Source: Candidatus Peribacter sp. UBA6535
GTDB lineage: Bacteria > Patescibacteriota > Gracilibacteria > Peribacterales > Peribacteraceae
Direction of reading: 5' to 3'
Length of the DNA stretch: 64,000 nucleotides
Assembly (NCBI GenBank): GCA_002436205.1
Contig: DJKT01000001.1
Location: forward strand, 4,055 to 68,054
Below, piece by piece: positions 7,713 to 45,700 of this stretch (its first letter is position 1; every line of letters begins with the position of its first letter). Below the pieces are notes generated by a model. The model did no database searches and had not been told where the DNA came from. It worked only from the letters and a program-made list of their open reading frames with translations. The position numbers and the translations under genes were made by a program.

Positions 7713-7738
7713 TATCCTAATTTCTGGGGTTTAGTCTG

Positions 7739-8206: not shown

Positions 8207-8262
8207 GCCAATTTCTGTTTCGTAATCATCCGAAGTGCTTTTTGGAAAGTATCTTCTTCAGT

Positions 8263-8290
8263 AAAAAAAGCCCCCGAAGGGACTCTTTTT
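8263..8290. terminator. Weak bidirectional terminator-like hairpin
   Basis: A-run, then AGCCC-CCGAA-GGG(A)CT stem, then T-run, between two minus-strand genes. Confidence 0.4.
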
Positions 8291-8309
8291 ACAACCTTCC
8301 TCAGTCTAA

Positions 8310-8858: not shown

Positions 8859-8989
8859 CCCACTACGCCCTGCGGGCTTCGAGGGGCAAGTCTTTACTGT
8901 GATGCGAGATGCAGTCATTGGAAAAGTTAGGAAAGGGGAGTAGCGTACTGCGGTAGAATTTTTTTGGCAATAGTGTGCTGAATACAAAA

Positions 8990-9640
8990 AAAGATCGATA
9001 CAGGATCGACCTTTTTGTGTTTGTGTTTCTCGGGTGACTATCAGAACCTAAGGGTTGAAAGTTGGCTCTGAGTCGGTAGAGAAGAAGTGAGAGCAGGCAC
9101 TCTCGACTTCCTGCCAAGCTACGGTCACTTATGTATACTCGCGACCAGACGAGTCCTCTTTAAGCAGATTCCAAGACAAGGGTTGCCCCAAGGGAATCAA
9201 AGAGAATTAGGAGTGCATCATTCGAATTCGCCTAAGATTTCGGTGATGTCTACGCTTAGCAGAGAGGGCGCTCAGCACGAGTGGCGCGACCACGCTCTTG
9301 CCACGCTAGCAAAAGGGTGATTGGACGGGAAGAACGTACGCCGAGACGACAGCACCGAGCGATCTCTCTGCGGGTATCTGTGGTGTGAAGGATCAAAATC
9401 AAGTCGGGACACTGGTGCTCTGTTTGTTTCTGTTTTGACTCCTTGTGTGTTTGTTTTTGGTCGGAGTCCCGACTGGTGCTCCTATTTGGGGAGCGAGAGG
9501 GCAGTCCCTTAAGGGGGACAACGGCTGATGGACTTAGACCTCTTCGCGAGGTAAGGATCTGCATTAGCAAATCATCACATCGTACCGCAGGGAGGATATT
9601 GCGCAACTTTTCTAGGTCGCGTAAGAAAGGGAATTATTCT
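8990..9640 (-). ncRNA. Candidate large structured RNA or long structured leader (family unknown)
   Basis: About 650 nt with no convincing ORF. GC is much higher than the adjacent AT-rich spacer, there are many local hairpins, and a terminator-like hairpin lies at 8995-9009. Strand assignment is tentative. Confidence 0.25.
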
Positions 9641-9718
9641 ATGGATACAAAATTTATACAATAATTTACATTGCTTAAAACAGCATTACAGAAAGGATAA
9701 CTCTATGTATGAATACAA

Positions 9719-9732
9719 AATTTGTACAAATT
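9719..9732. promoter_or_regulatory. Perfect 14-bp palindrome AATTTGTACAAATT (operator-like)
   Basis: Self-complementary sequence. A related copy, ATACAAAATTTATACAA, lies at 9645-9661 in the same AT-rich spacer. Confidence 0.25.
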
Positions 9733-9756
9733 AACATACCATGTCACATTCGTCTT

Positions 9757-17865: not shown

Positions 17866-17938
17866 GCCGACCAATTGTAGGTAGGCTACGAAAAACCGCA
17901 ATTGGTTTCCGTGGAAATTGTGGTAGGATTGGTTTCCT

Positions 17939-21440: not shown

Positions 21441-23729
21441 TTGGATCAGGAGCCCATTAGCAATCAAGCACTACTGATGATTGGAACAATTACTGCAGTA
21501 GTTGTCGCTATTTATGTTGGAAACTGGCAGGCAGATTTACTTGCACAGACTGCTGGAGGTGTTCCGGGATTTTCGACATGTGGCAATGGTGTATGTGAAA
21601 AGGGAGAGGATGAAATCGTGTGTCCCAGCTGTGCAGTTGATGCAGCGGGGCAGCCCCTTGGCAATTGCCCTCCATGTCAGATGGTATGTCCGCAGGATTG
21701 TAAAGATGACAGAGATCCTCCTGTCTGTGTGACAGTGGATTGTCAGGCACCACCTCAAAATTGCAAATATGTGGATATCAAGTTCGAAGGAAATTGTCAG
21801 GTGAACTGTGGTCGTCTGGAGTGCGAACCTGTTTGTGGGAATGGAAAGTGTGAAGAAGGAGAGAATGTTGATAACTGTAAAGAGGATTGTCGGATAATCT
21901 GCCCTTCTATCCTATGTGCTGCTCCACCACAGGGGTGCAAGTATGTAGATCCGAGAGAAGATGAAGATGGCTGCCAGACGAGTTGCGGAACAGTTGTCTG
22001 CCCTTCAACGGCAACGTGTGGCAATGGTAAGTGTGAAGAGGGCGAAGCAGATTTTGTCGATGGAGGCGGTTGCGGACCTAATTCGGATCCAGAGTGTCTC
22101 GGGCCTCCTGCGCAATTTATCAAGGGTACGTGTCCGAATGATTGTGAGGCACCACAACATATCGATCGTTGTGCCACGATGTTCTGTCCAAATGGATGCA
22201 AAGATGGAGAATGTATCCAGCCTTCAGCACCACAGGTTTGTCATTACAATGGAGGGGTGTATCACATCGGGGACAGGTTCAAAGATGATGATGGATGTAA
22301 TACCTGTTTCTGCGAAGAGAATGGCTCAGTCTCTTGTACAGAGATGGCGTGTGTCGATGATGACGATGATGCGATAGCTGCAGAACACTTCCGTCGTGTT
22401 CAATTTGGATGTCGAGATGGATCGGTGTTTAACGAGGGGGGTCCTACATCATGTAAGTCACGCATGGAGTGGAATAATTATGTTATAGAAACGTGTAGGA
22501 ATCGTTGTGATGCTCAAGGATGTGGTGAGACTGCATCGAATGTGTATGAATTCTGTGGAGGTAGCGATAATGGAGGTACCGAAGTCTGTATTTCTGGAGG
22601 GCAGAAATATTATCCAGGCGAAAGTTTTATAGCACCGGACGGCTGTAATAAATGTCATTGTGATGAGAATGGAAATGCAGCATGTACGAGAATGGCGTGT
22701 CCCGATCGTCCAATAATAGAATGCGAAGTGGATAGACAGTGTAACGCAGGAGAGGTGTGTATGGGTGGGGATTGCATCAGGAGAAATCCAGGAGGGAATG
22801 ACTACACGTGTATTTCTAGCAACGACTGTAATGCGGGGTATGTCTGCTCTGCAGAGTTTGGCGATTGCATGTCTGCATGTCCCCCTGGTGCAGAGGTCTG
22901 CCCGGATGTTTGTGCAGGATTTTGTATGCGTAAAGAGTTTGCATTCCCAGAGGTATTGCAGAAATGCGAGTTTTCAGATGAGTGCCCCAATGGTCGTATC
23001 TGTACGAAGAATGTTCAATTTGATTGCCTAGAAGAGTGTCCTTTGTCAGGTGATATTTGCGCTGTTCTCTGTGACGGACGTTGTATCATCCCTGATATCG
23101 ATGGAGATGAAGACGATTGGCAACCTCAAGATCACAATGAGTGGAGCAATCAACAGTATTCGGATTACGAAGATGAAGTACGAACCGCACCAATAGAGAG
23201 TCGATTCCGTGATATCGATTCAAGTACCTTAGAAGGTGTGGCAGCGAATGCTTTGGCAAACGAAGGTGTGATTGGTGGATTCCCTGATGGAACGTTCCGC
23301 GGAGGTCAGCCGGTGAATCGTGCAGAAGCTGCGAAGTTCTTACTTCTTGCGCGCTTTGGCCATGTAGGAGACGAGCGTAATGATGGCCTCTTCTTCGATG
23401 TTCTGGAAGGTGAGTGGTATGTGAAGTATGTCATCGCTGCTGCTGAGTTTGGTATCATCTCTGGTTATGCAGATGGAACATTTAGGCCTGCTAACACAGT
23501 AAATACTGCTGAATTCCTCAAGATGCTGAGTGAGGCATTCGGTCTCCCACAAGATCTTGCCCATAATTATGCAGATGTGCCGCGTGGTGCTTGGTTTGCA
23601 CAGTATGCAGGAGCAGCTCAGCTCTTCGATCTGTTCCCAGGACGCCCAACAGGGCAATTGCAGCCAGAGAGGCTACTGACTCGAGGTGAGGTGGCAATTG
23701 CGATCTACAAATTGATGGAGAATCAGTAG
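21441..23729 (+). CDS. Cys-rich secreted modular protein with three C-terminal SLH domains
   Basis: N-terminal TM/signal anchor, repeated CGNGKCEEGE modules, two VWC-like modules, and C-terminal SLH repeats (GFPDGTFRGGQPVNRAE, GYADGTFRPANTVNTAE). The start may be TTG 21441 or ATG 21477. Confidence 0.8.
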   Translation: MDQEPISNQALLMIGTITAVVVAIYVGNWQADLLAQTAGGVPGFSTCGNGVCEKGEDEIVCPSCAVDAAGQPLGNCPPCQMVCPQDCKDDRDPPVCVTVDCQAPPQNCKYVDIKFEGNCQVNCGRLECEPVCGNGKCEEGENVDNCKEDCRIICPSILCAAPPQGCKYVDPREDEDGCQTSCGTVVCPSTATCGNGKCEEGEADFVDGGGCGPNSDPECLGPPAQFIKGTCPNDCEAPQHIDRCATMFCPNGCKDGECIQPSAPQVCHYNGGVYHIGDRFKDDDGCNTCFCEENGSVSCTEMACVDDDDDAIAAEHFRRVQFGCRDGSVFNEGGPTSCKSRMEWNNYVIETCRNRCDAQGCGETASNVYEFCGGSDNGGTEVCISGGQKYYPGESFIAPDGCNKCHCDENGNAACTRMACPDRPIIECEVDRQCNAGEVCMGGDCIRRNPGGNDYTCISSNDCNAGYVCSAEFGDCMSACPPGAEVCPDVCAGFCMRKEFAFPEVLQKCEFSDECPNGRICTKNVQFDCLEECPLSGDICAVLCDGRCIIPDIDGDEDDWQPQDHNEWSNQQYSDYEDEVRTAPIESRFRDIDSSTLEGVAANALANEGVIGGFPDGTFRGGQPVNRAEAAKFLLLARFGHVGDERNDGLFFDVLEGEWYVKYVIAAAEFGIISGYADGTFRPANTVNTAEFLKMLSEAFGLPQDLAHNYADVPRGAWFAQYAGAAQLFDLFPGRPTGQLQPERLLTRGEVAIAIYKLMENQ

Positions 23730-25410: not shown

Positions 25411-25492
25411 AGGCTAATATTTACGGTAGAATCGCTGATTGATCAGTTTTTCTATTTCTGCTATACTAATACGAAACATACACAAAACCCTT

Positions 25493-26245
25493 ATGCCTAA
25501 AAAGACACAGAATACAGCTCACGTTTCCCGCGCTCTCGTCGCGGCACTCATTGGCGTTATCGCTATCCCAACTGCGATAACCGGTCTTTTCCAGTCTATT
25601 GATGACGATGGTATCAATACAGTTCCTGTTATTGATCTCCGTCATAGGGCTTTGAATGATGCATCTCGTGTGCGTTACGTTCGTCGCAATTACTGGAGGG
25701 CAGTGGGTATTTACAATGAGCTTGTCCGTCTTGGTGTAGAAGATCTTTCACCACCGGATATCAACGATAACGATAGTATCAACTACTACCTTGACCCAGA
25801 AAACTTTGCAGCTGTAGAAGGATTTGGAGCAACAGTACATGCAGCCGCTCCTCTTGGAGAAGGTGATGGATACGTCTCTTCTATTTCTGAAGCACAGAGG
25901 GAGTATAACAATCTTGCAGAACGATACCGTGATCTTCTAGATGGCTATATGACTACGCGATTTTGTCCTGGAACGCTTAGACAATATCATTTGGCAGGAT
26001 TCTATGAGCTTTGCAACACATTGCTCGATGAACACATTGCAGGATTACAACCCAGTCTCCTTGAGCGCTCCTCATACTTGCGCGGATTCAATTCTGTTGG
26101 TTTTGCACCACTGCGAACGCTACGCAACCGTTTGGAGGTTCTTGAAGAGTCTTTGATCTATGAGGGTGGAACATCAGTTCGCCCACGTACACATAGTGGA
26201 TTCCGTCCAAGACCCGATTACTCTGATCTTCGTACCGGTCGATAA
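25493..26245 (+). CDS. Membrane-anchored hypothetical protein, paralog A
   Basis: ORF 25439-26245 trimmed to ATG 25493. It has an N-terminal TM and shares several collinear motifs with the next gene. Confidence 0.6.
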   Translation: MPKKTQNTAHVSRALVAALIGVIAIPTAITGLFQSIDDDGINTVPVIDLRHRALNDASRVRYVRRNYWRAVGIYNELVRLGVEDLSPPDINDNDSINYYLDPENFAAVEGFGATVHAAAPLGEGDGYVSSISEAQREYNNLAERYRDLLDGYMTTRFCPGTLRQYHLAGFYELCNTLLDEHIAGLQPSLLERSSYLRGFNSVGFAPLRTLRNRLEVLEESLIYEGGTSVRPRTHSGFRPRPDYSDLRTGR

Positions 26246-26928
26246 TGAAACGTCATCCGTATGCCGCTCATAGGCTGATGATGGCATTGCTGGTAGGTAT
26301 TGTGGCTGTGCCCATTACATCCACTGCTTTATTTATTCGTCAGGAGATTACTCCACAGGATGTCACTGCTGAGGAGCTTCGCAAGAGTGCACTTGGAGAT
26401 CGTAGTAGGCTTCGTGCTCAGCGAAGACTTTACTGGCAGGTGATAGAGCGTATGGAATCTGGAAAAATAGATATTGAAAAACCAGATATTAACGATACAG
26501 ATACTCTGCAAAATGCTATGGAGGATCCTGAAGAGGAGGTACATGAGGCAGCTCCTGCTCCGGTGAATTCGCTTACTACCAATCAGCTCAATACTCAGGA
26601 TAGAAGTCTACTTCGTCGATATACTCGTGCAGGCTTCTGCCCTACTGCCCTTCAGAATTTCCGCATCCCAGGGTTCTATCAGCTTTGCGTTTCTCTTGTT
26701 GGAGCTTCGGTAAAGTCTGATCCTATTCGAGGACTTCTCAATCACAATGCACATTTGTATCGTATCTTGCGCCCATCTGCTCCAAATATTGGTGGATTTA
26801 AGCTGCGTATGCAGATGATGCAAGAGGCACGTGATCGCAGTACACGACGTGAATCCAGTGCTCTCCCCGGTCGTCCTACAACGTGTGTGATGAATTTGGA
26901 TTGTCAGATGCCTCGATATAATAATTAG
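26245..26928 (+). CDS. Membrane-anchored hypothetical protein, paralog B
   Basis: The start overlaps the stop of paralog A (TAATG). It shares PDINDxD, VH(A/E)AAP and FCP..L....(A/P)GFY(E/Q)LC motifs with paralog A. Confidence 0.6.
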   Translation: MKRHPYAAHRLMMALLVGIVAVPITSTALFIRQEITPQDVTAEELRKSALGDRSRLRAQRRLYWQVIERMESGKIDIEKPDINDTDTLQNAMEDPEEEVHEAAPAPVNSLTTNQLNTQDRSLLRRYTRAGFCPTALQNFRIPGFYQLCVSLVGASVKSDPIRGLLNHNAHLYRILRPSAPNIGGFKLRMQMMQEARDRSTRRESSALPGRPTTCVMNLDCQMPRYNN

Positions 26929-29317: not shown

Positions 29318-29352
29318 CCGTTTTCCGTTTTCCGTTTTCACTTTTCCGCTTT
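29318..29352. repeat. (CCGTTTT)x3-CACTTTT-CCGCTTT array, roughly the inverted complement of 29253-29283
   Basis: 7-nt periodicity. The reverse complement reads GGAAAAC/GGAAAAG-type units. It overlaps the last codons of the upstream gene. Confidence 0.85.
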
Positions 29353-30243
29353 CTGTTGCTCAAGTTCTGTGTTCAAGGCGCGCGCATCGCGAGCCGATTT
29401 GATGCAAAATTTTACGTTGGATTGCGCTTGACGAAAGTCGTCGATCAGCGCGTCATTATTATCAACACTCAGAAGTGATTCCAATACTTCTTCCTGGGTC
29501 TCCAGACAGTCGACGGCTTCGTCTATTTTTACCACGACAGACTCTGGTAATTCGGGTCTGGTGCGTACATCATCCAGGCGGATGGCAAGGTGATTGAGCC
29601 AGGCAAGAGACCGGCTGACGCGCATCTGAGCCATCGCGAGGCGCTTGTTGGATCTGTAGACTTCTCCAATACTTTTCTTTGCTGCCTGTAGCCCCTCTTT
29701 GTCTGTATAGACTCCTTCATCAATACCCCTCATGATTGTAGAAATAGCATCGGAGAGGTTTTGACTATGGGAAATAGCACTATTGCGATATTGCTCCGTA
29801 GGCCCCGGTAGGTAGCTTACATATTGGCGCTCTCTTCGGAGTATCTCTAGCTCTGCGCTCAGCGTTGCCTTATAGCAGTTGACCGTGATGGGCATCATTG
29901 CCCCACGGTTGGCTTTGCGGATGTCTGTGCGGCACTCTAGGCGCAAATTTCGACGGTTTTCACGGCGGGTGGCAAGCTCTTCTCTAAATTCCTTATCCGT
30001 TTTTCGATAGTTCATCATGGCAGCCCAGAAGCCAAGGTTACGGGTTCTGCGATCTGCCCATTGGAGATCTTCTTCGGAAATTGAGGACTCAGAGGATGCA
30101 GAAGATTCAGAGGAGGCAGCGGGTTTGTAGCCTTCTTGGAGTCCTACTTTCGCGTCAGCACCAAAGGGTATCAGGAGTATCCCGAGTAGACTGAATACGA
30201 TGAGGATCCATGAAGAGGGGGTCACGGGGAGATAGTGTACCAC
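29338..30243 (-). CDS. Membrane-anchored helical hypothetical protein
   Basis: 301-aa ORF with an N-terminal TM (SWILIVFSLLGILLIPFG), a Ser/Glu-rich linker and a predicted helical ectodomain. It lies 8 nt downstream of the mevalonate operon's last gene. Confidence 0.6.
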   Translation of the reverse strand: MVHYLPVTPSSWILIVFSLLGILLIPFGADAKVGLQEGYKPAASSESSASSESSISEEDLQWADRRTRNLGFWAAMMNYRKTDKEFREELATRRENRRNLRLECRTDIRKANRGAMMPITVNCYKATLSAELEILRRERQYVSYLPGPTEQYRNSAISHSQNLSDAISTIMRGIDEGVYTDKEGLQAAKKSIGEVYRSNKRLAMAQMRVSRSLAWLNHLAIRLDDVRTRPELPESVVVKIDEAVDCLETQEEVLESLLSVDNNDALIDDFRQAQSNVKFCIKSARDARALNTELEQQKAEK

Positions 30244-30251
30244 ATGCCTTC

Positions 30252-31169
30252 TTACGCCTTCACGCGCTCCAAAACCAATCCTCCTAATTGACCAACAACA
30301 ATATCAACATCGTCATTGACGATCAGGTCATCAAAGAGCTCTTTGCGATCTTTGAAGAACGCAAGATCTGCCTCTGCATTCTTTAGGCGGTCTTCTATCT
30401 GTTGCTCGGTATCACGGCCACGATCCCTCAGTCTGTGGAGCAGAGCACTCAGCATTTGTCGTTTACTCTTGCCCGGAGGTAGCAGTCCACAGCTGAGGAT
30501 TGACCGCCTGCCGTAGTGGGAGGCAAGTCCCTGGAGCAGATTCATCTCGGTAATGATGACGGGGATCTTTTTCTCCTTCCAGATTTTTTCAATATCTTCG
30601 CTGCGGTATCCGTAGAGACGCTTTTCATCCCGGGAAGGTATGCTCGTGAAGGTCGCGAGCTTACCGTCATTTTTGAGCGCGAGAAATTCTTCTGGGCTCA
30701 CGTGTGTGTACTCATCCTGATCTCCCTCTTTTACTTTCCGTGTTGTGAGAATGGGAACACGTTCGCAGTTACCTACTTTAGCCGAAAGTAGCAGAGAGAC
30801 CGTAGTTTTTCCGACACCGGAAGGGCCGGTGAGGGCGAGGATGTATCCGGGGAATTCCTCTTTTACGGGTTTTTGGAGCGGGACTTCGTAGGCTATGTCG
30901 TAGGTGCGGAGACCTTGAGCGTTGACTCTGGAGAGGCGCATTTTTGGTATCACTTTCATGCCAATGGCAGTTGGCAGTTGGCAGTTGGCAATTAGCTGAG
31001 CCGTTACTCTCGATCCATCCTCTAGCTCGATCAATCCGATTACCCTTGGTTTAGTGGGGAAACCTTCCGGAGGATGACGAACGATAGTGTGTGACAAAAT
31101 TGTTCCCTCCTGCAATTTGTTCTGCAGATCTTTTTGAGCGCGGTGGTTGGCTGCCGGAGTATTACGCAT
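30252..31169 (-). CDS. Fusion protein: DUF35 acyl-CoA-associated OB-fold domain plus a divergent guanylate-kinase-like P-loop kinase domain
   Basis: ATG 31169 lies within the thiolase stop (ATGCGTAA). N-terminal: GTILSHTIVRHPPEGF..PRVIGLIELEDGSRV..IGMKV (OB-fold pattern, no zinc ribbon). C-terminal: GPSGVGKTT, TTR, RLRDRGRDTEQQIEDRL, LIVNDD (Gmk family). Confidence 0.8.
   Translation of the reverse strand: MRNTPAANHRAQKDLQNKLQEGTILSHTIVRHPPEGFPTKPRVIGLIELEDGSRVTAQLIANCQLPTAIGMKVIPKMRLSRVNAQGLRTYDIAYEVPLQKPVKEEFPGYILALTGPSGVGKTTVSLLLSAKVGNCERVPILTTRKVKEGDQDEYTHVSPEEFLALKNDGKLATFTSIPSRDEKRLYGYRSEDIEKIWKEKKIPVIITEMNLLQGLASHYGRRSILSCGLLPPGKSKRQMLSALLHRLRDRGRDTEQQIEDRLKNAEADLAFFKDRKELFDDLIVNDDVDIVVGQLGGLVLERVKA
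30967..30998. repeat. (GCAGTTG)x3-GCAATTAGCTG element inside the DUF35-kinase gene
   Basis: Matches 20786-20818 at 32 of 33 positions in the same plus-strand orientation. Read on the minus strand as QLIANCQLPTAI. Confidence 0.9.
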
Positions 31170-32268
31170 GAGAGAGAATGTGGATGCCACAGGTTGCAGC
31201 TGCACCACCGAAGTTGTGAGCAAGGCCGTGGCGAGATTTGGATTCTTTAAGTTGCTTGGAAACATCAATGACTTGTTTGATACCAGTAGCTGCAACGGGG
31301 TGGCCACAGGCTTTTAAGCCCCCACTTTGGTTTATAGTCATCTTGTTTTCTTTTTCATAAAGCGCAATACCTTCTCCAGGGTTTGCAAATCCCATATCTT
31401 CTAAAGAGATAAGTGCTGCAATAGAGAAACAGTCATGGAGCTCGATATGTCCGATATCTGTCCGATCAATTTCCGCCTCTTCAAGAGCAGCACGCATTGC
31501 ATCTTTTGTCGCTGCAAACGAAGTGATGGTAGGACGGTCTGCAATACTTAGAGTGTCTGTTGCAAGTTGTGAAGCAGCGATCCGGATAGGACTTTCGAAT
31601 TTTGTAGAAAGGATCACGCTAGCTGCCCCATCGGAAATAGGAGAGCAGTCGAGCATACAGAGTGGGTCTGCAACTTTTGCCGATGCACTGATGCTTTCTG
31701 CGGGGATCTCTTTGCAGAATTGTGCGAAGGGATTACTGACTGCATTTTTGTGATGTCTGGCACTGACATGATTTAGCCTGTCTCGACTTAAGCTATATTC
31801 ATGCATATATCTGGCAGCTATCAGTCCGAAAATTCCTGGGAAGGTGAGTCCAGAAGGTGCATCTTTTTGCGCATCTGCTGCCCCCATAAGTCCTGCGGCT
31901 ATCTTGCCTGGGGCTATATCAGTCATCTTTTCTACTCCGACAACAAGTACTGTCTGCGCCTTACCACTTTCCAGTAATGCACAGGCTGTGTGCAGAGCTA
32001 CAGCTCCTGACGCACACGCTGCCTCTGCGCGAAGTGCTGGAGGATGGTGTGGCAAGAGCGAAGCAGCCATTGCTCCAAGGTGTGCTTGATCTGAGGCAAC
32101 TTCTCCAAGCATGTTGGCAACGACGACCATATCAATATCTAGCGCAGTACATTCCGCAGACTCAATAGCGCTGTCGATAGACTCTTCCATCAGATCTTTG
32201 ATCGACATATCCCAGTGCTCGGCGAAGCGCGTTTGTCCTGTGCCTGTGAGGTAGATGGGAGTGTTCAT
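31162..32268 (-). CDS. Acetoacetyl-CoA thiolase, archaeal/SCP-x type
   Basis: 368 aa. Thiolase-like N-terminus (MNTPIYLTGTGQTRF), catalytic-Cys region EAACASGAVAL, and C-terminal NFGGAAATCGIH. Confidence 0.9.
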   Translation of the reverse strand: MNTPIYLTGTGQTRFAEHWDMSIKDLMEESIDSAIESAECTALDIDMVVVANMLGEVASDQAHLGAMAASLLPHHPPALRAEAACASGAVALHTACALLESGKAQTVLVVGVEKMTDIAPGKIAAGLMGAADAQKDAPSGLTFPGIFGLIAARYMHEYSLSRDRLNHVSARHHKNAVSNPFAQFCKEIPAESISASAKVADPLCMLDCSPISDGAASVILSTKFESPIRIAASQLATDTLSIADRPTITSFAATKDAMRAALEEAEIDRTDIGHIELHDCFSIAALISLEDMGFANPGEGIALYEKENKMTINQSGGLKACGHPVAATGIKQVIDVSKQLKESKSRHGLAHNFGGAAATCGIHILSHA

Positions 32269-33278
32269 GCAACGCGCTGGTATTCGGAGTAGTTGAGGTA
32301 CACAGTTTCTCTTGTATCAGGTTGGAGCTTTACTCCATCCTTAAGCATCGTCATCAAGAATGCATCACTTCCTGCTCCCGATCCATACGATACGAGCAGG
32401 ATACGCTGATCTTTCTTTGCTTGCTGCAATACGTGTGCAAGTCCTAGAGGGCTACAGGCTGAGTACGTGTTTCCGATAGTCTCCACTATAAATCCGTGTT
32501 CCATCTGGTCTTTACTAAAGCCAAATTCTTTTGCAATGCGTGATGGGAACTTAGCGTTTGGCATATGGAAGATCACATGATCAATTTCTTCTGGTTTGAT
32601 CTTTCCTACTTCCAGCATTCCCTTCGTCGCTTCGCGGACATGGTGGAAGTACGCGGGTTCTCCGGTAAAGCGTCCTGCGTGTTCTGGATGGTCTTTTCCA
32701 TTTGCTCTCCAGAAGTCCGGTGTGTCTGTGGTAAACGATAGCGTGTGATCAATCTTACAGAGAGCATTCTTCTCACTAGCTAGACCCATGATGAATGCAG
32801 CAGCACCTGCAGCGGCTGTATACTCCAGTGCATCTCCGGGCTTGGCTTGCGCGCAATCTGCACCTATCGCAAGGCCGTGGCTGATCTGCTTTGCGCGAAT
32901 CATACTATCGACTATCTGCAGAGATGCTGTTCCTGCTTTGCAGGCAAACTCGAGATCTGCGCAGTGACAGAACGGATCACATTCAAGCGCAGCTGCCACC
33001 ATCCCACTTGTCGGCTTTACCGCATACGGGTGACTTTCGGATCCGACAAATACTGCAGATACCTGAGAGCTTTTGATATCTGCAATTTCGATTGCTTGCT
33101 TTCCAGCTTCAAACGCCAGTGTAAATGTATCTTCTCCTTCATTTGGTACGGTTTTTTCCACCACTCCCAATCCTGCCTTTATCGACTCAGCATCTTGTTG
33201 CCACGCAGCGGCAATCTCCTCCGCTTTGATCTTATGGGAGGGTATACTTAAACCGAAACCGAGGATGGCGGATTGCAT
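32265..33278 (-). CDS. Hydroxymethylglutaryl-CoA synthase, archaeal type
   Basis: 337 aa. It has a short archaeal-type HMGCS/KAS-III-like layout (GSESHPYAVKPT, catalytic-Cys region, VSYGSGAGSDAF). ATGA overlap with the thiolase gene. Confidence 0.9.
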   Translation of the reverse strand: MQSAILGFGLSIPSHKIKAEEIAAAWQQDAESIKAGLGVVEKTVPNEGEDTFTLAFEAGKQAIEIADIKSSQVSAVFVGSESHPYAVKPTSGMVAAALECDPFCHCADLEFACKAGTASLQIVDSMIRAKQISHGLAIGADCAQAKPGDALEYTAAAGAAAFIMGLASEKNALCKIDHTLSFTTDTPDFWRANGKDHPEHAGRFTGEPAYFHHVREATKGMLEVGKIKPEEIDHVIFHMPNAKFPSRIAKEFGFSKDQMEHGFIVETIGNTYSACSPLGLAHVLQQAKKDQRILLVSYGSGAGSDAFLMTMLKDGVKLQPDTRETVYLNYSEYQRVA

Positions 33279-33314: not shown

Positions 33315-34472
33315 CTATCTAGCCAGCTTTTTATGACTGCTGGCAAGCTTCTGTGCAGCTTGAGCTGCAAGCAGCGATACTTCACCTGCAAGGACAGCGC
33401 CGCCTATGGATTCTGCAAGCTGCTGGACGCGACTGAGTGAAGTAGTTGGTTTAAGGAGAAGGTCTAGACACTGATGTTGTGCAGGGAGAGCAGTGCCTCC
33501 ACCGATGGTGCCAACGAGGATTGCTGGGAGGCGCACCTCGATTTCCAGTTCTCTACTTGAGAGAAGTCTACAAGAAGTATCTGCGAGCGATCCCTCTGTT
33601 ACATGTGCAGCATCTTGCCCTGTAGCAATATACAGTGCCGCAATTATATTGGCTGCATGTAAGTTTGTTCCAATGGCACCGGCAATCTTCGATCCTCGTT
33701 TTAGCTTAGCTTCGTAAACCTTCATCATTTCCTCAGGCGTTGTTTTGAGGACGTCCGAACATATGGAGAATCCAATTGAACATGTTGCCGTTACTTCGTA
33801 CCCACGACCTTTGTCGTGTGTTCTTTGCGATGGTTTTTTATCACTATCTACATTGGCGGCAATTGTGATGAGTTCGCAGTTGCCGTGCTTGGCAATCCAA
33901 TTGCCAATCTCTTGAGCAGCTATCGTTATCATATTCATTCCCATTGCCTCATTGGTATCACCGTTGATTGTTAGAAAAACATAGTCATCTGCCTCATCAA
34001 TCTCGTAATGTATTATCTGAAGATGCTTGCTCGTTGCCTGACCGATTTTCTTCCATTGGTTCTTCTTATCTTTAATGAACGCCGGAAGCCTCGATTCTTT
34101 ATCTGATACTTTGAACGCGATAGAACGACTGATACCATGATAGATTACAGAGGTCTTCACATCGGCTTTTGATAGTGCTTTGCAGCCGCGGTTCACACTC
34201 GCTACCAATGCCCCTTCGGTGGTTGCAAGAGGCAAGTGAATACTATCGGTATCACCGGAACTAAATGTCATTTTCAGTGGCCCTGCATACCCGACAGGAA
34301 TCGGCACACTTCCAAACATCTGCTCGCAGTTATTTTCTTCTGCTTGCCCTATGCGGTTAGGCTCTGTTCCGAGTAGCGAAAGATTGAGATCCAGATTATC
34401 TTGAATCTTCATTCTGCGTACAGCACAACGCTCATGAGGGGAGAGCGATTCGGGGAGATTGCGGAGGTCCAT
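33315..34472 (-). CDS. HMG-CoA reductase, class I
   Basis: TTEGALVASVNRGCKA, EAMGMNM and VGTIGGGT motifs typical of class I enzymes. An alternative GTG start lies at 34475. Confidence 0.92.
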   Translation of the reverse strand: MDLRNLPESLSPHERCAVRRMKIQDNLDLNLSLLGTEPNRIGQAEENNCEQMFGSVPIPVGYAGPLKMTFSSGDTDSIHLPLATTEGALVASVNRGCKALSKADVKTSVIYHGISRSIAFKVSDKESRLPAFIKDKKNQWKKIGQATSKHLQIIHYEIDEADDYVFLTINGDTNEAMGMNMITIAAQEIGNWIAKHGNCELITIAANVDSDKKPSQRTHDKGRGYEVTATCSIGFSICSDVLKTTPEEMMKVYEAKLKRGSKIAGAIGTNLHAANIIAALYIATGQDAAHVTEGSLADTSCRLLSSRELEIEVRLPAILVGTIGGGTALPAQHQCLDLLLKPTTSLSRVQQLAESIGGAVLAGEVSLLAAQAAQKLASSHKKLAR

Positions 34473-35449
34473 CACACTAAGTGTGCACCAGGACCTATCG
34501 AAGCTTCAAATATTTGGCAGCCTTCTTGGGTGTGGGCATACTCTGCGATTCGCTCTTTTGCTTCGTCTGTGCAGAATAAATGCACTGTAGGACCTGCATC
34601 CATCGTGTAGAGCACAGGGAGGTGTTCGGCTTTGCGGAGCGCTTTAACCTCATCCAAAATCCGATAGGTTTCATCAGAAAGATAGTTGAGTGGTGGGTCT
34701 TGCGTCTGCATACAGTGGTGCATTTCCATGCAATCTTCTTCAGCAACCTTCTGTAGTTTTTCGAAATCCTTACTGAGAATTGCATCGATACATTCCTGTT
34801 GGCGATGGCCATTGATCGCATCTACTCGCGCTGCAAAATCCGGGCTTGTCTGAGCCTGCGGATGCCCTTCGGATGATCCTACTTTCTTTTCTTCGGTACT
34901 CGGAACAATGATGATGTCATGCAAATTCCAGTGATGTTCATCTGCCACCTGCCACCCTTTGCATCCATCAATAAATTGATTTTCCTCATTACGAATAGCA
35001 CCGAAACCACCGAAGATTGATCTGGCAGCAGAGCCCGACCCAAGTCTCGCCATGATGCTTATTTGCTCATCGGTTAGATCAAAATCGACAAGACCAGAAA
35101 TGGCTTTGGCAAGAGCAGAAAATACTGCGGCAGAGGAGGCGAGTCCGATAGCGGGAGGGATGTGGGAATCGATCTTTATAGACAGGTTTGATACTTTTGT
35201 AGGCTCAATTGTTCCGAGATAACTTTCGATCAACTCAAGAGTTTTTTTAAAACGTAAGATGTTTTTTTCGGTCATCTCTTTATTGGTTGATGTGATCGAG
35301 AGAGTATCTGCATGATCGATCGTAATATCCAAACTCGGAGTGTTCAGTGTCATAGAGAGACTGTCGTTTGCACACAGGCGAAACTCGTTGTGTCTGTTTC
35401 CCCAGTATTTGATGAGGGCGATATTTGGAGTGGAGCGTGCAGTGATCAT
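34472..35449 (-). CDS. mvaD: Diphosphomevalonate decarboxylase family protein (could equally be a phosphomevalonate decarboxylase)
   Basis: NIALIKYWGNR, NDSLSMTL and GLASSAAVFSALA GHMP motifs. 325 aa. Confidence 0.9.
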   Translation of the reverse strand: MITARSTPNIALIKYWGNRHNEFRLCANDSLSMTLNTPSLDITIDHADTLSITSTNKEMTEKNILRFKKTLELIESYLGTIEPTKVSNLSIKIDSHIPPAIGLASSAAVFSALAKAISGLVDFDLTDEQISIMARLGSGSAARSIFGGFGAIRNEENQFIDGCKGWQVADEHHWNLHDIIIVPSTEEKKVGSSEGHPQAQTSPDFAARVDAINGHRQQECIDAILSKDFEKLQKVAEEDCMEMHHCMQTQDPPLNYLSDETYRILDEVKALRKAEHLPVLYTMDAGPTVHLFCTDEAKERIAEYAHTQEGCQIFEASIGPGAHLV

Positions 35450-36264
35450 AATTGGATAACAGGATACTGAGAGGGGACCTGCGCTGCATCAACATTCACT
35501 GCTAAAACCATCCCACATCCACCGGTCTTGCTTCCTGCCCCGAGCACCTTGGCAGCTCCACCTTCTTGTTCAATTTTTGTGATCAGACTTTTTGCTTCAT
35601 CTGTAACAACTCCAAGAGATTGCTGTGCAAGATTGTGTTCTTTGAAAATATCAGAAAGGTTTTCATGCTGTTGTAATTTTTTACAACAACTTCCGATGGT
35701 ACGGAGAGGTTCTTCCAGCTCATCTTTGCGTTCGGTTACCCACTCGATCAGCTCCGGTGTTTGCTGATCCGGTTCCCCGGTATCAATCAGTAAAGCTCCT
35801 TTTAAAAGATCATCTGGTAATTCAATCACTTCCGGCTCTGTTCCCTTCTGAAACTTGATCGGTCTCTCATTCCAGATGACTGCAAAGTCGATGCCGCTAT
35901 TTCCGGGATTTACTGCATCCTCAATTTCGAGAGCTTTCTCTTTATCTTCTCCAATCAAACATTTCGTAACAGCAATCAACAAGGCAGTTGAAGCTCCCAT
36001 GCCTTTACCGAGGGGGAGTGGACTATTGATAGAAAGTGTTCCACCAAATGTACCGCAATGGCTAATGATCTGCTTGAGATACTCTTGCCAGTGAGGCTTT
36101 CCGGTCATTTGCTGCCACTCCACTGAAAGATCCTTTATCTCTGAGTTTTCTTCATAGACTGCAGAAATACCAAGTGGAGCGGGGATTGCTATTCCCGGGT
36201 ACCCGAAGAGTACGGCGTATTCACCGGAGAGGATGATCTTTCCTGATGCATGAGCAGTTCTCAT
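35446..36264 (-). CDS. mvk: Mevalonate kinase (short GHMP kinase)
   Basis: ORF trimmed to ATG 36264, which overlaps the uppS stop (ATGA). It has GKIILSGEYAVLFG and PLGKGMGASTA GHMP motifs. 272 aa. Confidence 0.8.
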   Translation of the reverse strand: MRTAHASGKIILSGEYAVLFGYPGIAIPAPLGISAVYEENSEIKDLSVEWQQMTGKPHWQEYLKQIISHCGTFGGTLSINSPLPLGKGMGASTALLIAVTKCLIGEDKEKALEIEDAVNPGNSGIDFAVIWNERPIKFQKGTEPEVIELPDDLLKGALLIDTGEPDQQTPELIEWVTERKDELEEPLRTIGSCCKKLQQHENLSDIFKEHNLAQQSLGVVTDEAKSLITKIEQEGGAAKVLGAGSKTGGCGMVLAVNVDAAQVPSQYPVIQL

Positions 36265-36932
36265 TCTCCAAACCTGCGGGTACGATCTGCAAACTTTCCA
36301 ACGGAATCTGATAAATCCTCCACAGTAAAGTCTGGGAAGAACTTGTCGACAAAATCCCACTCGGCATACGTTGCTTGCCAGAGGAAGAAGTTTGAGGTGC
36401 GATGCTCTCCTGAGGTTCGGATGATGAGATCAATATCAGAAAGCTCCGGATGATCGAGCGCAGCTGCTATTGCTTCTTCGCTGACGTCATCAGTTTTACT
36501 GAGTGCTCTTACTACTTCATCCTTCCCACCGTAATCGATAGCGAGGTGCAGAGTGAATCCTGTTTGGTCTTTGGTTTCCTCTTCTACTACAGCAATCAAT
36601 TTGGCAAGTGAAGAGGGGATCCGGTCTTTTCTTCCGGAGTGCACGAAGCGGGTTTGATTCTCCAAAAACGTAGAGCGCTCTTTGGCGAGGTACTCTTCCA
36701 GTAGCCCCATCAACATATCAATTTCCTTTGGGTCACGTTTCCAGTTTTCAGTCGAAAAACACCAGACGGTAAGAGTATGTACTCTTTTGTCTTCCCGACA
36801 CCAGTCTGTCAGTGTACGAAAATTCTCGACGGCTACTTTGTGCCCCTCCCAGGGTTTGAGTGTACGAGACTTTGCCCAACGCCTGTTGCCATCGGGAATG
36901 ATGGCGATGTGAAGAGGGTTATCTGGCATCAA
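36261..36932 (-). CDS. uppS: Isoprenyl transferase (undecaprenyl-diphosphate synthase family)
   Basis: IAIIPDGNRRWAK, FSTENWKR and IRTSGEHRTSNFFLWQ motifs. Confidence 0.93.
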   Translation of the reverse strand: MMPDNPLHIAIIPDGNRRWAKSRTLKPWEGHKVAVENFRTLTDWCREDKRVHTLTVWCFSTENWKRDPKEIDMLMGLLEEYLAKERSTFLENQTRFVHSGRKDRIPSSLAKLIAVVEEETKDQTGFTLHLAIDYGGKDEVVRALSKTDDVSEEAIAAALDHPELSDIDLIIRTSGEHRTSNFFLWQATYAEWDFVDKFFPDFTVEDLSDSVGKFADRTRRFGE

Positions 36933-37440
36933 GAATTATCTGGAGTGCCAGAGGAAACCATGGAGCGTACAAATCAGGATTCTCTTCTAAGTCTTTTTCA
37001 AGCTCATCAATCTCTATCCACTTCATATCCATGATTTCACTCGGATCGGGATTGAGTTCGATAGATTCATCAGCAGTCCCCACTAGCACCGTATCGTATT
37101 CGTACTCTGTTCCTCGCCCCTCAGGGTCGTCTGCTTTATAGATAAACGAGTCTACTGCCTCTACTCCTGCCCGGAATCCACACTCTTCTTTAAGGCGATC
37201 GGAAGCCTCTATTTCTATATCAAACTTCTCTTTGGGGTGGCTACAGCAGGTATTTGCCCAAAACCCCGGAAAGAGCATCTTTACAGAGGCGCGCCTCTGA
37301 ATCAGCAATTTCTGGTGATCAGGGGTAAATATGAAGACAGAGAAGGCTTTGTGGAGCTTTCCCCCCTCTGTGTGAGCTTCGATAATTTCGGACTTTCCGA
37401 GGCTTTGACCCTGTTCATTGGTGAGTATGACTGATTTCAT
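36919..37440 (-). CDS. idi: Isopentenyl-diphosphate delta-isomerase, type 1 (Nudix)
   Basis: LHKAFSVFIF...LLIQRRASVK..FPGFWANTCCSHP pattern. 173 aa. Confidence 0.88.
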   Translation of the reverse strand: MKSVILTNEQGQSLGKSEIIEAHTEGGKLHKAFSVFIFTPDHQKLLIQRRASVKMLFPGFWANTCCSHPKEKFDIEIEASDRLKEECGFRAGVEAVDSFIYKADDPEGRGTEYEYDTVLVGTADESIELNPDPSEIMDMKWIEIDELEKDLEENPDLYAPWFPLALQIILDAR

Positions 37441-42700: not shown

Positions 42701-42780
42701 CCTTTGGGTTCACGTAAGCCTAGCGTGAATAGTAAATATGGAGCACAGTGTATGTCCTCTTTAACATTTCACTCTCTTTT

Positions 42781-45700
42781 ATGAATGCTCTTCGACGTTT
42801 CCTTGTAACATTCCTTACAGGAGTATTGTTATGTAATCCTGCATACGCTTTTGCACAGGATGTACGTGCAGGCATCGACTTCTTTGGGTCGGGGCCGAGT
42901 GAATTTCATGTTGATAGTTTCTTTGATGTTTTTACAGAGCTCGCAGTTCCAGATGTCTTGTGTGATCCTTGTGATGCGATAGAGGCAGAGATTGCGCAAA
43001 AGGAAGCTGAGATAGAGGGGCTAAAAGAAGACCTGGGAACACTGGAGGGTTGGCTGGATGATATTGCTGGTGATATAGAAGATGCTCAGAGCGATTTAGA
43101 AGATGCACAGGCGGATTTGGATGAATTTACCGATCCTCAGAATTACGTAGAGAGCGAAGGGCGTCGGTATGATTCCAGTGATAATGCTGCGATGAATCGC
43201 AGAAATGCAAATCTTTGGGATGCATATAAGGCAGGGGATTTGACGGCACATGAATATAGCGACGAAGTGGGTAAGCCGTATGATGATCCAGACGTTGCCA
43301 AAGAGCTTGAGAAGCTGAAGAAAGAAATTAAGAAAGAAATGGAAGAAGCGGTGAAGGATGCCAAGAGTCAAGTGGAGGATCTCAAAGAGAAGCAGAAAGA
43401 GTGGAACGAACTTGGTGCAGAAATGACTGCAGAGCTTGAAGAGTGTCTCACAAAACTCGAGGAACTTATTAAGGCGCTGGAGGAATGCAAAAAGCAGTGC
43501 AAAAAGGGTAAAGTAAAAATAGAAGATCTCGGCGTTATTCCTGAGGAGCGAGGATTATTCGATAGTTTCTTTGATATCTTTATCGATCTCTTTTCTGGCC
43601 CACCTCTCGTTTTACCGGGCGGTACGGATACCATTGTCGAGAGACTCGATCCCGATGCTCAACCTCCCGGATCAGATACCGTTCCAATAGAACTGGTTGA
43701 GCTGCAGCTACAGTCTTTTGAGCCTGTTGTTGTAGGTCTTAATGATCCTATAAAAATACTTCCTCCTCCAAAGTGTCAGTTGTGTGATCCGCTGGCAAAA
43801 GATATTGCAGCCAAAGAGGCAGCACTTAAGAAGCTCAAGCAGGAACTTGCCAATGCACAGGCAGCATTACTGGTATTGGATGGATTAATTGGCATTGGAG
43901 AAGGCATGCTGGAGGATGCGAAGGAAAATCTGGAAGATCTGCAAAATCCTTCAGATTACGTTGAGAGTGAAGGCCGTCGATACGATAGTTCTGATCATGC
44001 AGCCATGAAGATACGCAATCAGCGTCTGTGGGGAGAGTACAAAGCAGGAAAACTATCTGCACAAGGCCTCTCTGATGAATGGGCAAAGCCATTTGATGAT
44101 CCGGATGTTGCGAAAGAACTTGAGGAGATCAAAAAAGATCTTGCAGAAGAACTTGAGGATGCAATCGATTCTATAGAAGATTCCATTGACACTCTTAAAA
44201 AACAGAAAGCAGATCTTGAAAAGGATATTGAAGACATGAAAAAGGAGATTGCAGAGTGCGAGAAGAAATTAGCTGAGATGCGTCAGAAATATGAGGAATG
44301 TCAGAAGAAGTGCGTAGCAAAAGTTGAGGATGCATTCGATGACTTCTTCGATGATTTGCCTCCTCTGTTTGTAGATGGGTTTGAAAGTGGAGACACTACA
44401 AGGTGGTCACAGGCCATTGGAGATACAGATGATAAAGATGAAGAAGACGAAGAAGACAACGATGATGAGGGATTCCTCTGTGGAACACTTGGACTATTTT
44501 GTCCGTCGGATCCTATTCCGACACTCGGTGCTTTTGCAGATTGTGTTGTAGAACGTTCTTCCGATCCATTCTGTACGAATAACTTTGATCAAAACGGAGA
44601 TGGACAGACCAATACAGTAGATATTGAACTTGTAGCACTCTCTTTGGTAAGTACAGAACCTATTACCGTGGGCGGTGAGCTTTGGGATGTCCAAGTCGAT
44701 CTTTCGGGTATGGATGGTAATACCGGTAGTATGAGCATAGAAGATCTTCGCCTGGGAAGTGAGTGTTTCGGTGGTGGACCGTGTGATGGCCTCGGCGTCA
44801 CATTGCCACCAGATCTATCTACAGTACCCCTTGATCTTTCTGGTAATGATTTTCAGCCACAACTATCAGGAGGAAATGATGTATTATTAGGAGATCCACT
44901 TTCTGATGATTTCATTGGTGTTGGCGGTGTGAATAATGTTGATTTTGCAGATAATCCTATTCCTGCTGACTTCTTTGGTCCAGGCAGTGCTCCATTTGAT
45001 GGAACAGTTGATTTGCTTCCTTTTGGTGCGCCAGGTCCTGGGTCGGATCTGCCGCCACTTGTTCTTCCAGATCCGGTGCAACCACCACCTGAGCAAGTGC
45101 CACAGGCTGTCAAAGACCTGATTGCTAAGATCATTCGTGATAATCCTTTGGGTCCCTGTGAGCAGTTGATTATCAATGTTCGACGTATCCGCATTGGAAA
45201 CAGAGTTTCGTATACAGTGACTGCCACAAGAACACGAGATGAGTCTGCCTGTCCACCTGCAGTTTGCCCTCCGCAGACACATTTCCAGTCTATTGGGACT
45301 GGTTGTGATGCTTGCCAAAATGGCAATGCCGGATGCACCGTAATTGAAACCCTGCCGGATGGAACGAATTGTATGTTGTGTGCTCCACCATCCGATGATC
45401 AGGATGATATAGACCTAGATGATGGTGATGGATATGAAAATGATGGTGGCGGAGATGACTTGTGTGAGGACATTAGCTGTGATGATGGAGACGAATGTAC
45501 GGAAGACGAATGTGATCCGGAGACTGGCGAATGTCATAACACCCCCATTGATGGATGTGGTGATCCGGTCTTCGATTGCAGTAATAATGATTTGCTACCA
45601 TTTGATAGTAAGACCGAGTGCCAGGCCGGTAGTCCGCTTTGCCCTTCCAGCACTGCTGAATGCCAAAGTCACAGTACACCAAACGGCACGTGTTGGGGTT

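Follow-up and report, generated by a model that had tools for sequence, protein, structure and literature searches.

The complete genomes of Peribacteria encode the steps of the mevalonate (MVA) pathway to mevalonate and mevalonate-5-phosphate, and those after mevalonate-5-diphosphate, and the pathway was described as 'near-complete' (Anantharaman et al., PMC4736985). Which enzyme bridges the gap? We studied this question in a stretch of 64,000 nucleotides of Candidatus Peribacter sp. UBA6535 (contig DJKT01000001.1; hereafter, the window), where a mevalonate operon ends with a gene fusing a DUF35-type OB fold to a domain that resembles guanylate kinase (Gmk). An earlier note on this DNA had proposed that the kinase domain supplies the missing step. 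The sequence comparisons support the proposal, and none of the findings that the note had listed as contrary to it turned up in them. We propose, with about as much belief as doubt, that the fusion protein is the missing lower-pathway kinase and acts on isopentenyl phosphate (IP). The architecture of the protein, its conservation, its residue pattern, its operon context, the type of the neighbouring decarboxylase and the lack of another recognised kinase for the step in the complete genome of a relative are observed; the substrate, and the binding to a complex of thiolase and HMG-CoA synthase (HMGS), are what we infer.

A fusion gene at the end of a mevalonate operon

The operon has eight genes in the order idi, uppS, GHMP kinase, decarboxylase, HMG-CoA reductase (HMGR), HMGS, thiolase and, last, the fusion gene. 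Neighbours overlap by 4-14 nt, except for a 36-nt gap between HMGR and HMGS. From the first gene to the last, with the parts of the fusion at the end, the features are:

36919..37440, reverse strand: type 1 isopentenyl diphosphate (IPP) isomerase of the Nudix fold (PF00293; the Ca. Peribacter riflensis orthologue is K01823)
36261..36932, reverse strand: cis-prenyltransferase, UppS (PF01255, 9.9e-65)
35446..36264, reverse strand: divergent mevalonate-kinase-like GHMP kinase, 272 aa (TIGR00549, 86 bits, below the cut-off of 163)
34472..35449, reverse strand: GHMP-fold decarboxylase with the signature of phosphomevalonate decarboxylases (PMDs), by its best PDB match, 6N0X, and its discriminating residues
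33315..34475, reverse strand: class I HMGR (PF00368, 1.4e-88)
32265..33278, reverse strand: archaeal-type HMGS (NF003274, 427.9 bits; TIGR00748, 389.7 bits, exceeding the cut-off of 353)
31162..32268, reverse strand: archaeal-type acetoacetyl-CoA thiolase (NF053570, NF004720 and Pfam thiolase domains), whose stop overlaps the start of the fusion
30252..31169, reverse strand: coding sequence of the DUF35(OB)-Gmk-like fusion, 305 aa, stop codon included (open reading frame, start and two Pfam domains)
30885..31169, reverse strand: DUF35-type OB domain, residues 1-95, with an N-terminal helix (5-18) followed by the OB fold and without a rubredoxin-like zinc ribbon
30846..30884, reverse strand: interdomain linker, residues 96-108 (VPLQKPVKEEFPG), without secondary structure and with lower pLDDT in the AlphaFold2 model, variable in the family alignment
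30255..30845, reverse strand: P-loop kinase domain of the guanylate-kinase fold, residues 109-305 (PF00625), with a remodelled acceptor pocket

The thiolase scores 320.6 bits on NF053570 (a Methanothermococcus thiolase model) and 362 bits on NF004720, short of the respective cut-offs of 600 and 420.

The longest open reading frame at the fusion locus, 30252-31307 on the reverse strand, begins with GTG and has 351 codons for amino acids. The earlier note preferred the ATG at 31169, which lies inside the thiolase stop (CTCATGCGTAA; 8-nt overlap) and gives 305 aa. The fusion gene is thereby translationally coupled to that of the thiolase. This start is also the one picked by gene callers on three independent contigs with an identical protein, and the homologues share it (M..TP..HRAQ). 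The two-domain architecture proposed in the note holds as well: in profile searches both Pfam domains exceed their gathering cut-offs, OB_ChsH2_C (PF01796) at residues 21-73 (E=1e-12, 48.2 bits against 27.1) and Guanylate_kin (PF00625) at residues 112-295 (E=4.8e-11, 43.1 bits against 25.2). The motif strings that the note quoted are all present in the sequence. An AlphaFold2 model built with 71 homologues (pLDDT 84.8) comprises an N-terminal helix, a five-stranded OB barrel, the linker and the kinase domain. Databases name the protein 'guanylate kinase' or 'OB-fold domain-containing protein', and we found no description of a DUF35-kinase fusion in the literature searched.

Domain and profile searches agree with the earlier note that the operon holds a single GHMP kinase and a single decarboxylase. 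Elsewhere in the window we found no amino-acid-kinase-type IP kinase (IPK), no second Gmk and no further GHMP kinase. All PDB matches of the GHMP kinase (35446-36264) are mevalonate kinases (MVKs), and its score on the MVK model exceeds that on the phosphomevalonate kinase (PMK) model. Its motif I is GKIILSGEYAVLFG (GEYAV), with a tyrosine as in GHMP-type PMKs (1K47: GEYAIL), at a position where MVKs have a histidine (GEHAV).

The decarboxylase suggests which step is missing

The best PDB match of the operon decarboxylase is 6N0X, with 157.6 bits against 129.9 for the best mevalonate diphosphate decarboxylase (MDD), that of S. epidermidis. The structure 6N0X is the PMD of Anaerolinea thermophila (AthPMD) bound to mevalonate-5-phosphate (PMC9254496). 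Dellas et al. listed the active-site positions that discriminate MDDs from PMDs (PMC3857490, Table 4), and we compared the sequences at positions 18, 21, 27, 139, 141, 192, 193 and 196 (S. epidermidis numbering). At these positions the S. epidermidis MDD has Y K I S S S R M and AthPMD has Y N R S S S T H. The enzyme of the window has Y N R S S S S H, and the native operon decarboxylases have Y N R S S S (S/T) H in 36 out of 36 examined. Both MDDs that we aligned (S. epidermidis and E. faecalis) carry K21, R193 and M196, with I and L, respectively, at position 27. The entry 6N0Z differs from 6N0X exactly at the N-to-K and H-to-M positions, and we took it to be the specificity-switched variant mentioned in PMC9254496.

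Because the decarboxylase is of the PMD type, the missing step would be the conversion of IP to IPP and not that of a PMK. Judging from these residues, the operon most likely makes IP, and the enzyme that it lacks would be an IP kinase. The earlier note had left the step as that of either a PMK or an IPK; the idea of a missing kinase stands, and the decarboxylase points to an IPK. The operon would thus follow the 'haloarchaeal/Chloroflexi' route, in which a mevalonate kinase is followed by a PMD and then by an IP kinase, with a Gmk-fold enzyme in the place of the usual IPK of the amino-acid-kinase fold. The PMD/IPK route has been described as confirmed only in haloarchaea and Chloroflexi (Hoshino and Gaucher 2018, PMC6107057).

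The alternative that the kinase domain is a PMK, in a classical route with a decarboxylase that acts on the diphosphate, draws on some of the same data. The chemistry would be the same, with a phosphate as acceptor, and the residues that clamp this phosphate (R38, Y50 and Y78, see below) are retained. An invariant arginine, R184, in an insertion specific to the clade could bind a carboxylate, and there is a precedent in animal PMK, a P-loop enzyme for the same step. The decarboxylase scores 194.6 on TIGR01240 ('diphosphomevalonate decarboxylase'), above the cut-off of 171.35, and its orthologue in a relative, Ca. P. riflensis, is listed as K01597. The TIGR01240 and KEGG calls do not discriminate between the two types, because the Chloroflexi PMDs, too, carried the annotation MDD until their activity was assayed (PMC3857490). 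On NF040704 (MvaD), whose name suggests a haloarchaeal-type enzyme, the score is 116.7 bits against a cut-off of 475. Against a PMK, the decarboxylase lacks the Lys21 and Arg193 of MDDs and has Arg27 and His196 as in the Anaerolinea PMD; the arginine that corresponds to Arg27 in the Roseiflexus MPD, Arg83, was modelled as clashing with the beta-phosphate (Dellas et al., PMC3857490). We therefore regard a PMK as quite improbable.

The kinase domain keeps its catalytic residues and has lost the guanine contacts

The fold of the C-terminal domain is that of Gmk. The best PDB matches by Foldseek are Gmk structures, with target-normalised TM-scores of 0.8-0.88, a root mean square deviation of ~2 A and 22-26% identity. 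On the equivalog model of Gmk (TIGR03263) the domain scores 74.5 bits, below the cut-off of 160.45. There are weak matches to models of PhnN (TIGR02322 and NF007485, 20-27 bits) and none to the PMK models TIGR01220, NF040957 and PF04275; the last is absent among the Pfam matches and the best 60 PDB profile matches of the fusion. We aligned 121 family members with the Gmk of yeast, E. coli and mouse, and use the numbering of yeast Guk1 for the comparison. We take S34, E69, S80 and D100, together with D98 and G103 of the DxDxQG motif, to be the residues that contact guanine in the structures 1GKY and 1EX7. The segments that matter are:

30801..30827, reverse strand: P-loop GPSGVGKTT, in which G115, G118, G120 and K121 are invariant in the 121 homologues
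30708..30752, reverse strand: ILTTRKVKEGDQDEY, with I140 for the guanine contact S34, R144 (=R38) and Y154 (=Y50) kept, and K147 for R41
30606..30641, reverse strand: IPSRDEKRLYGY, with a clade-specific insertion of 4 residues including the invariant R184, Y186 (=Y78) kept, and Y188 for S/T80
30537..30554, reverse strand: ITEMNL, with I206, E208 and L211 for D98, D100 and G103 of the Gmk motif D-x-D-x-Q-G
30387..30434, reverse strand: lid segment RLRDRGRDTEQQIEDR, with R246, R250 and R261 (yeast R131, R135 and R146) invariant in the 121 homologues

The alignment separates two sets of positions. The catalytic and lid residues (K14, R131, R135 and R146) and those that bind the acceptor phosphate (R38, Y50 and Y78) are invariant across the 121 homologues, and the position of R41 is a lysine (K147) in 86% of the family. 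The positions that contact guanine all hold other residues than in Gmk, and these are fixed across the family: S34 is I (100%), S/T80 is Y (100%), E69 is A, T or S (residue 173), D98 is I or V, D100 is E and G103 is L. The insertion of 4 residues precedes the YGY motif. The earlier note had seen by eye that segments contacting GMP and guanine are substituted. The family alignment bears this out and refines it: the guanine contacts are not intact and the catalytic residues are invariant, and the phosphate contacts are kept apart from the change of R41 to K. The P-loop that it described is real, with GPSGVGKTT at 30801-30827; the interval that it gave, 30804-30827, covers GPSGVGKT.

The domain thus has the fold, the P-loop, the lid and the phosphate clamp of a Gmk, and has neither its guanine recognition nor a score that reaches the equivalog cut-off. 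We class it in the Gmk superfamily by fold and catalytic machinery; the features that define the function of Gmk are absent. As read from the alignment, the pattern is what one expects of a kinase that remains active, with a phosphate group as its acceptor, and no longer recognises guanine. A pocket lined by I, A/T, Y, I/V and L would fit a small hydrophobic phosphomonoester. The C-terminal domain would then be a catalytically competent P-loop kinase derived from guanylate kinase, with the ATP site, the lid arginines and the acceptor-phosphate clamp kept and the guanine pocket rebuilt with mostly hydrophobic residues. With the gamma-phosphate of ATP it would phosphorylate the phosphate group of one of the small phosphomonoesters in the lower mevalonate pathway. 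Of these, IP (giving IPP) would be the most likely, because the decarboxylase of the operon is of the PMD type.

Could the domain still be a guanylate or deoxyguanylate kinase, i.e., a second Gmk that became fused to DUF35 by chance? Besides the fold and the Pfam match, the protein passes the threshold of KEGG K00942 and bears the JGI name 'guanylate kinase', which speaks against our assignment. The change of D100 to E is conservative, Y188 still has a hydroxyl, and some of the relatives without an OB domain lie a few genes from guaA. We nevertheless consider this very improbable, since S34, E69, S/T80, D98 and G103 are all replaced clade-wide, the domain falls far short of the equivalog cut-off, a canonical gmk is present in a relative's complete genome (next section), and the strict position after the thiolase would be unexplained. 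Compared with Gmk and Guk1 (PF00625, TIGR03263), the domain shares the fold, the P-loop, the lid arginines and R38/Y50/Y78, and differs in the fused OB fold, the location in a mevalonate operon, the replaced guanine contacts, the change of R41 to K and the 4-residue insertion.

The gene table of a relative lists no recognised kinase for the step

Checking a complete genome for a separate gmk, PMK or IPK was among the suggestions of the earlier note. We used the gene table of the closed genome of Ca. P. riflensis (PMC4736985, supplementary file 2), so that the complete-genome evidence comes from this relative and not from the genome of the window. Gene 643, at the end of the same operon, is a 312-aa fusion listed as 'gmk' (K00942, 103.7 bits), and gene 213 is a separate canonical gmk (200 aa, K00942, 157.7 bits). 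The table has no entry for K00938, K13273, K06981 or K18689 (the KEGG orthologies of IPK, PMK and PMD), and it lists the decarboxylase as K01597. A weak argB-like gene of 437 aa (gene 544) could hide an unrecognised kinase function, as could an orphan amino-acid-kinase-fold gene (gene 735) that we discuss below.

In the candidate phyla radiation the classical IPK is mostly limited to Microgenomates; its gene is syntenic with MVA genes and idi, and stays beside idi in genomes without other MVA genes (Hoshino and Gaucher, PMC6107057). The function of the lower-pathway kinases in this radiation is an acknowledged open point (PMC6107057).

The fusion and its operon are conserved, and the kinase site decays in rearranged operons

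A search of 5.8 billion protein clusters returned 566 homologues of the fusion. Both Pfam domains are present in nearly all of the best 120, and the homologues with a named source are mostly from Candidatus Peregrinibacteria or Peribacteraceae. When the kinase domain was searched with phmmer against 1.84 billion representatives, 17 proteins fell below 1e-30, followed by a plateau at ~55 bits of proteins with the length of Gmk. Six plateau proteins ranked just under the clade were aligned; for the most part they retain the canonical residues at the guanine-contact positions (S/T, E, T, D, D and G). By these comparisons the fusion kinase is a discrete, conserved clade, mostly from Peregrinibacteria. 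A scan of GTDB genomes with the full-length alignment was swamped by the generic P-loop pattern, gave three true members and is unusable as a taxonomic census.

The operon order idi-uppS-GHMP-decarboxylase-HMGR-HMGS-thiolase-fusion is kept down to ~55% protein identity and is conserved over 80 further metagenomic loci. The survey of relatives that the earlier note advised thus found the fusion and its position kept in more than 80 metagenomic loci (here numbered with an L). HMGS, thiolase and fusion follow each other in every locus with visible neighbours, those with a dead kinase included, except in L162, where thiolase and HMGS are apparently swapped. In the operons with a native PMD and visible lower-pathway genes, the kinase site is intact in 37 out of 37.

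Six operons (L094, L105, L130, L151, L155 and L158) carry a foreign cassette made of a canonical MVK (TIGR00549, 215 bits in L094) and a decarboxylase that resembles AthPMD, in which position 21, where visible, is K or R. The cassette (4260-6208 in L094) replaces the native decarboxylase, and its own decarboxylase is much closer to the Anaerolinea PMD (300 bits). These operons have three kinase-type genes each, and the divergent GHMP kinase is retained where visible. In two of them, L094 and L130, the kinase site of the fusion is degenerate, with K121T, Y154S, Y186V, R250G and R261Q in L094. We considered the extra GHMP kinase of L094 as a PMK and rejected this, because it is a canonical MVK. 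We also dropped the notion that the presence of a PMK means a dead kinase domain, given that four cassette operons keep the domain intact.

Kinase sites are degenerate in other fusions too (L095, L096, L119 and L177, where HMGS, thiolase and fusion keep their order, and L175). The OB fold and the location behind the thiolase gene persist in these degenerate fusions:

L094, 9765-10688
L095, 2400-3311
L096, 4064-4951
L119, 8252-9169
L177, 3094-4011

What is lost is the P-loop lysine, lid arginines and/or residues of the acceptor site. The adjacency to HMGR and the lower-pathway genes is gone in L096, L119 and L177 (0.9 kb seen). An IS200-like transposase lies upstream in L177, and another interrupts the cassette operon L130. 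All degenerate sites with a visible context are in rearranged operons. Decay of the kinase site differs between cassette and native operons with p=0.017 (Fisher test), a value computed on loci that are not phylogenetically independent. The pattern is suggestive of an OB part that travels with thiolase and HMGS, and of a kinase that is selected only in operons of native lower-pathway composition.

A DUF35 OB domain without its zinc ribbon

The profile of the family matches residues 47-119 of 6ESQ_E, the DUF35 subunit of the archaeal thiolase/HMGS complex (E=3.6e-6), and also matches ChsH2. In the AlphaFold2 model, five strands lie within residues 22-95. DUF35 proteins carry a zinc ribbon (PMC12960953). 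The earlier note had observed that the CxxC zinc ribbon is missing here, and indeed Pfam gives no zinc-ribbon match and the sequence lacks a CxxC motif. It has just three cysteines, C63, C135 and C227, none of them within residues 1-62, and the family consensus has no conserved cysteine in the N-terminal region where the ribbon would be.

The likeness to the DUF35 scaffold of the archaeal complex lies in the homologous OB fold and in a gene that adjoins those of an archaeal-type thiolase and HMGS; the difference is the missing zinc ribbon. Given this homology and the gene order, the OB fold probably docks onto the thiolase/HMGS pair encoded just upstream. The HMGS-DUF35 fusions of Pseudomonas (PMC12960953) are likewise a case in which DUF35 is joined to an enzyme of its complex, with the difference that the partner there is HMGS itself; the survey in PMC12960953 mentions no kinase as a partner of DUF35.

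Relatives of the kinase without the OB domain

Some members of the clade lack the OB domain and share the derived residue signature. They are found in three settings:

L088 5597-6187, L091 10001-10642 and L092 3345-3929: standalone kinases of 194-213 aa
L089/L090 10001-10675: standalone kinase of Ca. Kentron, 224 aa (90% cluster of P0123), with the full derived signature
L093: PMD-like decarboxylase at 952-2001 (C21, T27 and H196) and, 8 kb apart, a more distant standalone kinase at 10001-10648 (35% identity)

The first three share a block with WecG, His_Phos_1, UppS, His_Phos_1, the kinase, UDP-GlcNAc 2-epimerase, Wzy_C and GuaA; for L092 no UppS is visible, and L088, a short contig, stops right after the kinase gene. 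The two His_Phos_1 genes of this block belong to the histidine-phosphatase family. Adjacency to uppS agrees with a role as an IPK because UppS consumes IPP, and it resembles the persistence of the classical IPK gene beside idi in genomes of the candidate phyla radiation without other MVA genes (PMC6107057); the nearby PMD-like gene of L093 also speaks for such a role. The link to UppS is equally compatible with some other substrate from the metabolism of polyprenyls or the envelope. These kinases may serve the salvage of IP or have a polyprenyl-phosphate function.

Protein P0123 is 54% identical to the kinase domain of the window, and Ca. Kentron, a gammaproteobacterial sulfur-oxidising symbiont of ciliates, likely acquired its kinase by horizontal transfer. 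The Kentron gene adjoins genes of type II secretion and a defence-like pair of KAP NTPase and QatB. In L093, a GC-rich contig that encodes secretion tails of the T9SS type, a truncated FMN_dh gene could be a type 2 IDI.

Evidence against an IP kinase, and the other readings

Several observations weigh against the assignment of the fusion as an IP kinase. The choice of substrate depends on how the adjacent decarboxylase is typed and on a pocket read from the alignment. Four of the cassette operons (L105, L151, L155 and L158) have an extra canonical MVK and a different decarboxylase, and their kinase site is still intact, so that the complementarity with other kinases is not clean. Conversely, L094 and L130, with a dead kinase and a PMD-like decarboxylase, would need another IPK, and none was found. 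Around the dead-kinase loci L119 and L130 there is no amino-acid-kinase-type IPK, second Gmk or other GHMP kinase, nor is there any around L010, where the kinase site is intact but the operon has no decarboxylase, and none was found within 20 kb. No mevalonate genes occur within 14-20 kb of the kinases of L088, L091 and L092, and the homologue in Ca. Kentron has no mevalonate or isoprenoid genes nearby. Gene 735 of Ca. P. riflensis, an orphan ProB-like gene of the amino-acid-kinase fold (265 aa; K00931 with 173.9 bits, threshold 219.4), could be the true IPK. Finally, the PMK-like GEYAV motif in the sole GHMP kinase means that it is not secure which kinase does which step.

The last point leads to a reading in which the two kinases exchange roles, the Gmk-like domain acting as the mevalonate kinase on the 5-hydroxyl and the divergent GHMP kinase as the PMK. 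The motif, shared with GHMP-type PMKs, would fit, and so would L094, which gained a canonical MVK and kept the divergent GHMP kinase while its Gmk-like site decayed. We give this next to no credence: the GHMP kinase has no PDB matches other than MVKs and prefers the MVK model, the Gmk-like domain has a complete clamp for an acceptor phosphate, a PMD-type decarboxylase makes a PMK unnecessary, and the four operons just described combine a canonical MVK with an intact Gmk-like domain.

PhnN is a ribose 1,5-bisphosphokinase of the Gmk family, which adds a phosphate to a non-nucleotide phosphomonoester. It provides, with the weak profile matches seen here, a precedent within the family for a non-nucleotide phosphate acceptor, and differs in its phosphonate operon context and its substrate. 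This precedent also serves a broader alternative: the kinase may act on some other phosphorylated metabolite, such as a polyprenyl or sugar phosphate of envelope synthesis, or have a regulatory or structural role on thiolase/HMGS, the IPK being another protein, e.g., the ProB-like one. The amino-acid-kinase-fold gene of Ca. P. riflensis is indeed an orphan, with neither proA nor proC listed in the gene table. The standalone members sit in a block of WecG, UppS, His_Phos_1, epimerase and Wzy genes, or, in Kentron, outside any isoprenoid context. The decay of the kinase site in several lineages in which the OB domain and the position persist also indicates that the protein is kept for more than catalysis. 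On the other side, the catalytic residues are invariant in all 37 operons of native composition, and adjacency to uppS is equally expected of an IPK, since UppS uses IPP. With its strong score on the ProB model (174 bits), gene 735 looks like a true homologue of glutamate kinase. We judge this alternative rather unlikely and retain the fusion as the candidate IP kinase.

Other features of the window

Three large secreted proteins fit the cysteine-rich extracellular proteins described for Peribacteria:

9757-10881: 374-aa SLH protein, cysteine-rich and secreted
21441-23729: 762-aa cysteine-rich secreted protein with pacifastin-like repeats and SLH domains
42748-46638: 1296-aa cysteine-rich secreted protein with an internally duplicated coiled-coil region and Cys-rich repeats

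Other regions encode conserved proteins without a Pfam match, or lack good reading frames:

15790-17901: conserved 703-aa protein, no Pfam match
25439-26245 and 26245-26928: adjacent, similar-looking membrane-anchored proteins between trpS and maf, conserved, no Pfam match
29338-30243: 301-aa signal-anchored protein directly downstream of the fusion and paired with a YgjP-like metallopeptidase, conserved, no Pfam match
~7700-9750: ~2 kb with only low-quality open reading frames and no Rfam or tRNA match, flanked by the gene of a VirD4/TraG-like coupling protein (4636-7314) and that of the SLH protein

Implications for the mevalonate pathway

The conversion of IP to IPP is, to our knowledge, catalysed in all cases known so far by one enzyme family, unrelated to Gmk. 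Animal PMK shows that such families can be displaced, because it is an enzyme of the nucleoside-monophosphate (NMP) kinase fold with a P-loop that took the place of another kinase family in the lower mevalonate pathway. It has no detectable sequence similarity to the fusion (PF04275), for which we predict another substrate. By analogy, the fusion may be a non-homologous isofunctional IPK, as animal P-loop PMK does the work of GHMP-type PMK. It would share with the IPK of the amino-acid-kinase fold (Grochowski 2006; Dellas et al. 2013, PMC3857490) the reaction and a place in the pathway after a PMD-type decarboxylase, as well as the synteny with MVA genes and idi in genomes of the candidate phyla radiation (PMC6107057). 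It differs in having the unrelated, Gmk-like P-loop fold in the place of an amino-acid kinase with a catalytic His60, and it lies outside the IPK family. In the literature searched, we found no description of an IPK or a PMK of the Gmk fold.

A wider scenario is possible, though we hold it as doubtful. The Gmk-derived enzyme would be a second, non-homologous type of IPK, tethered in Peregrinibacteria by a stripped-down DUF35 to thiolase/HMGS, such that the first and the last steps of the pathway take place on one particle. The standalone relatives next to uppS, which have no mevalonate genes close by, would phosphorylate salvaged IP. This would explain how some reduced bacteria of the candidate phyla radiation obtain IPP for their cell-wall lipid carriers.

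The fusion is a specific candidate for the gap in the mevalonate pathway of Peribacteria. If the assignment is correct, it would be the first IPK (or PMK) on the guanylate-kinase fold and a further non-orthologous displacement in a pathway known for them, and it would extend the PMD/IPK route to a phylum of the candidate phyla radiation. Hundreds of database entries named 'guanylate kinase' or 'OB-fold domain-containing protein' would be corrected, and a compact kinase would become available for engineered isoprenoid pathways. The tethering by DUF35 would then be a new example of how a metabolon is built through gene fusion.

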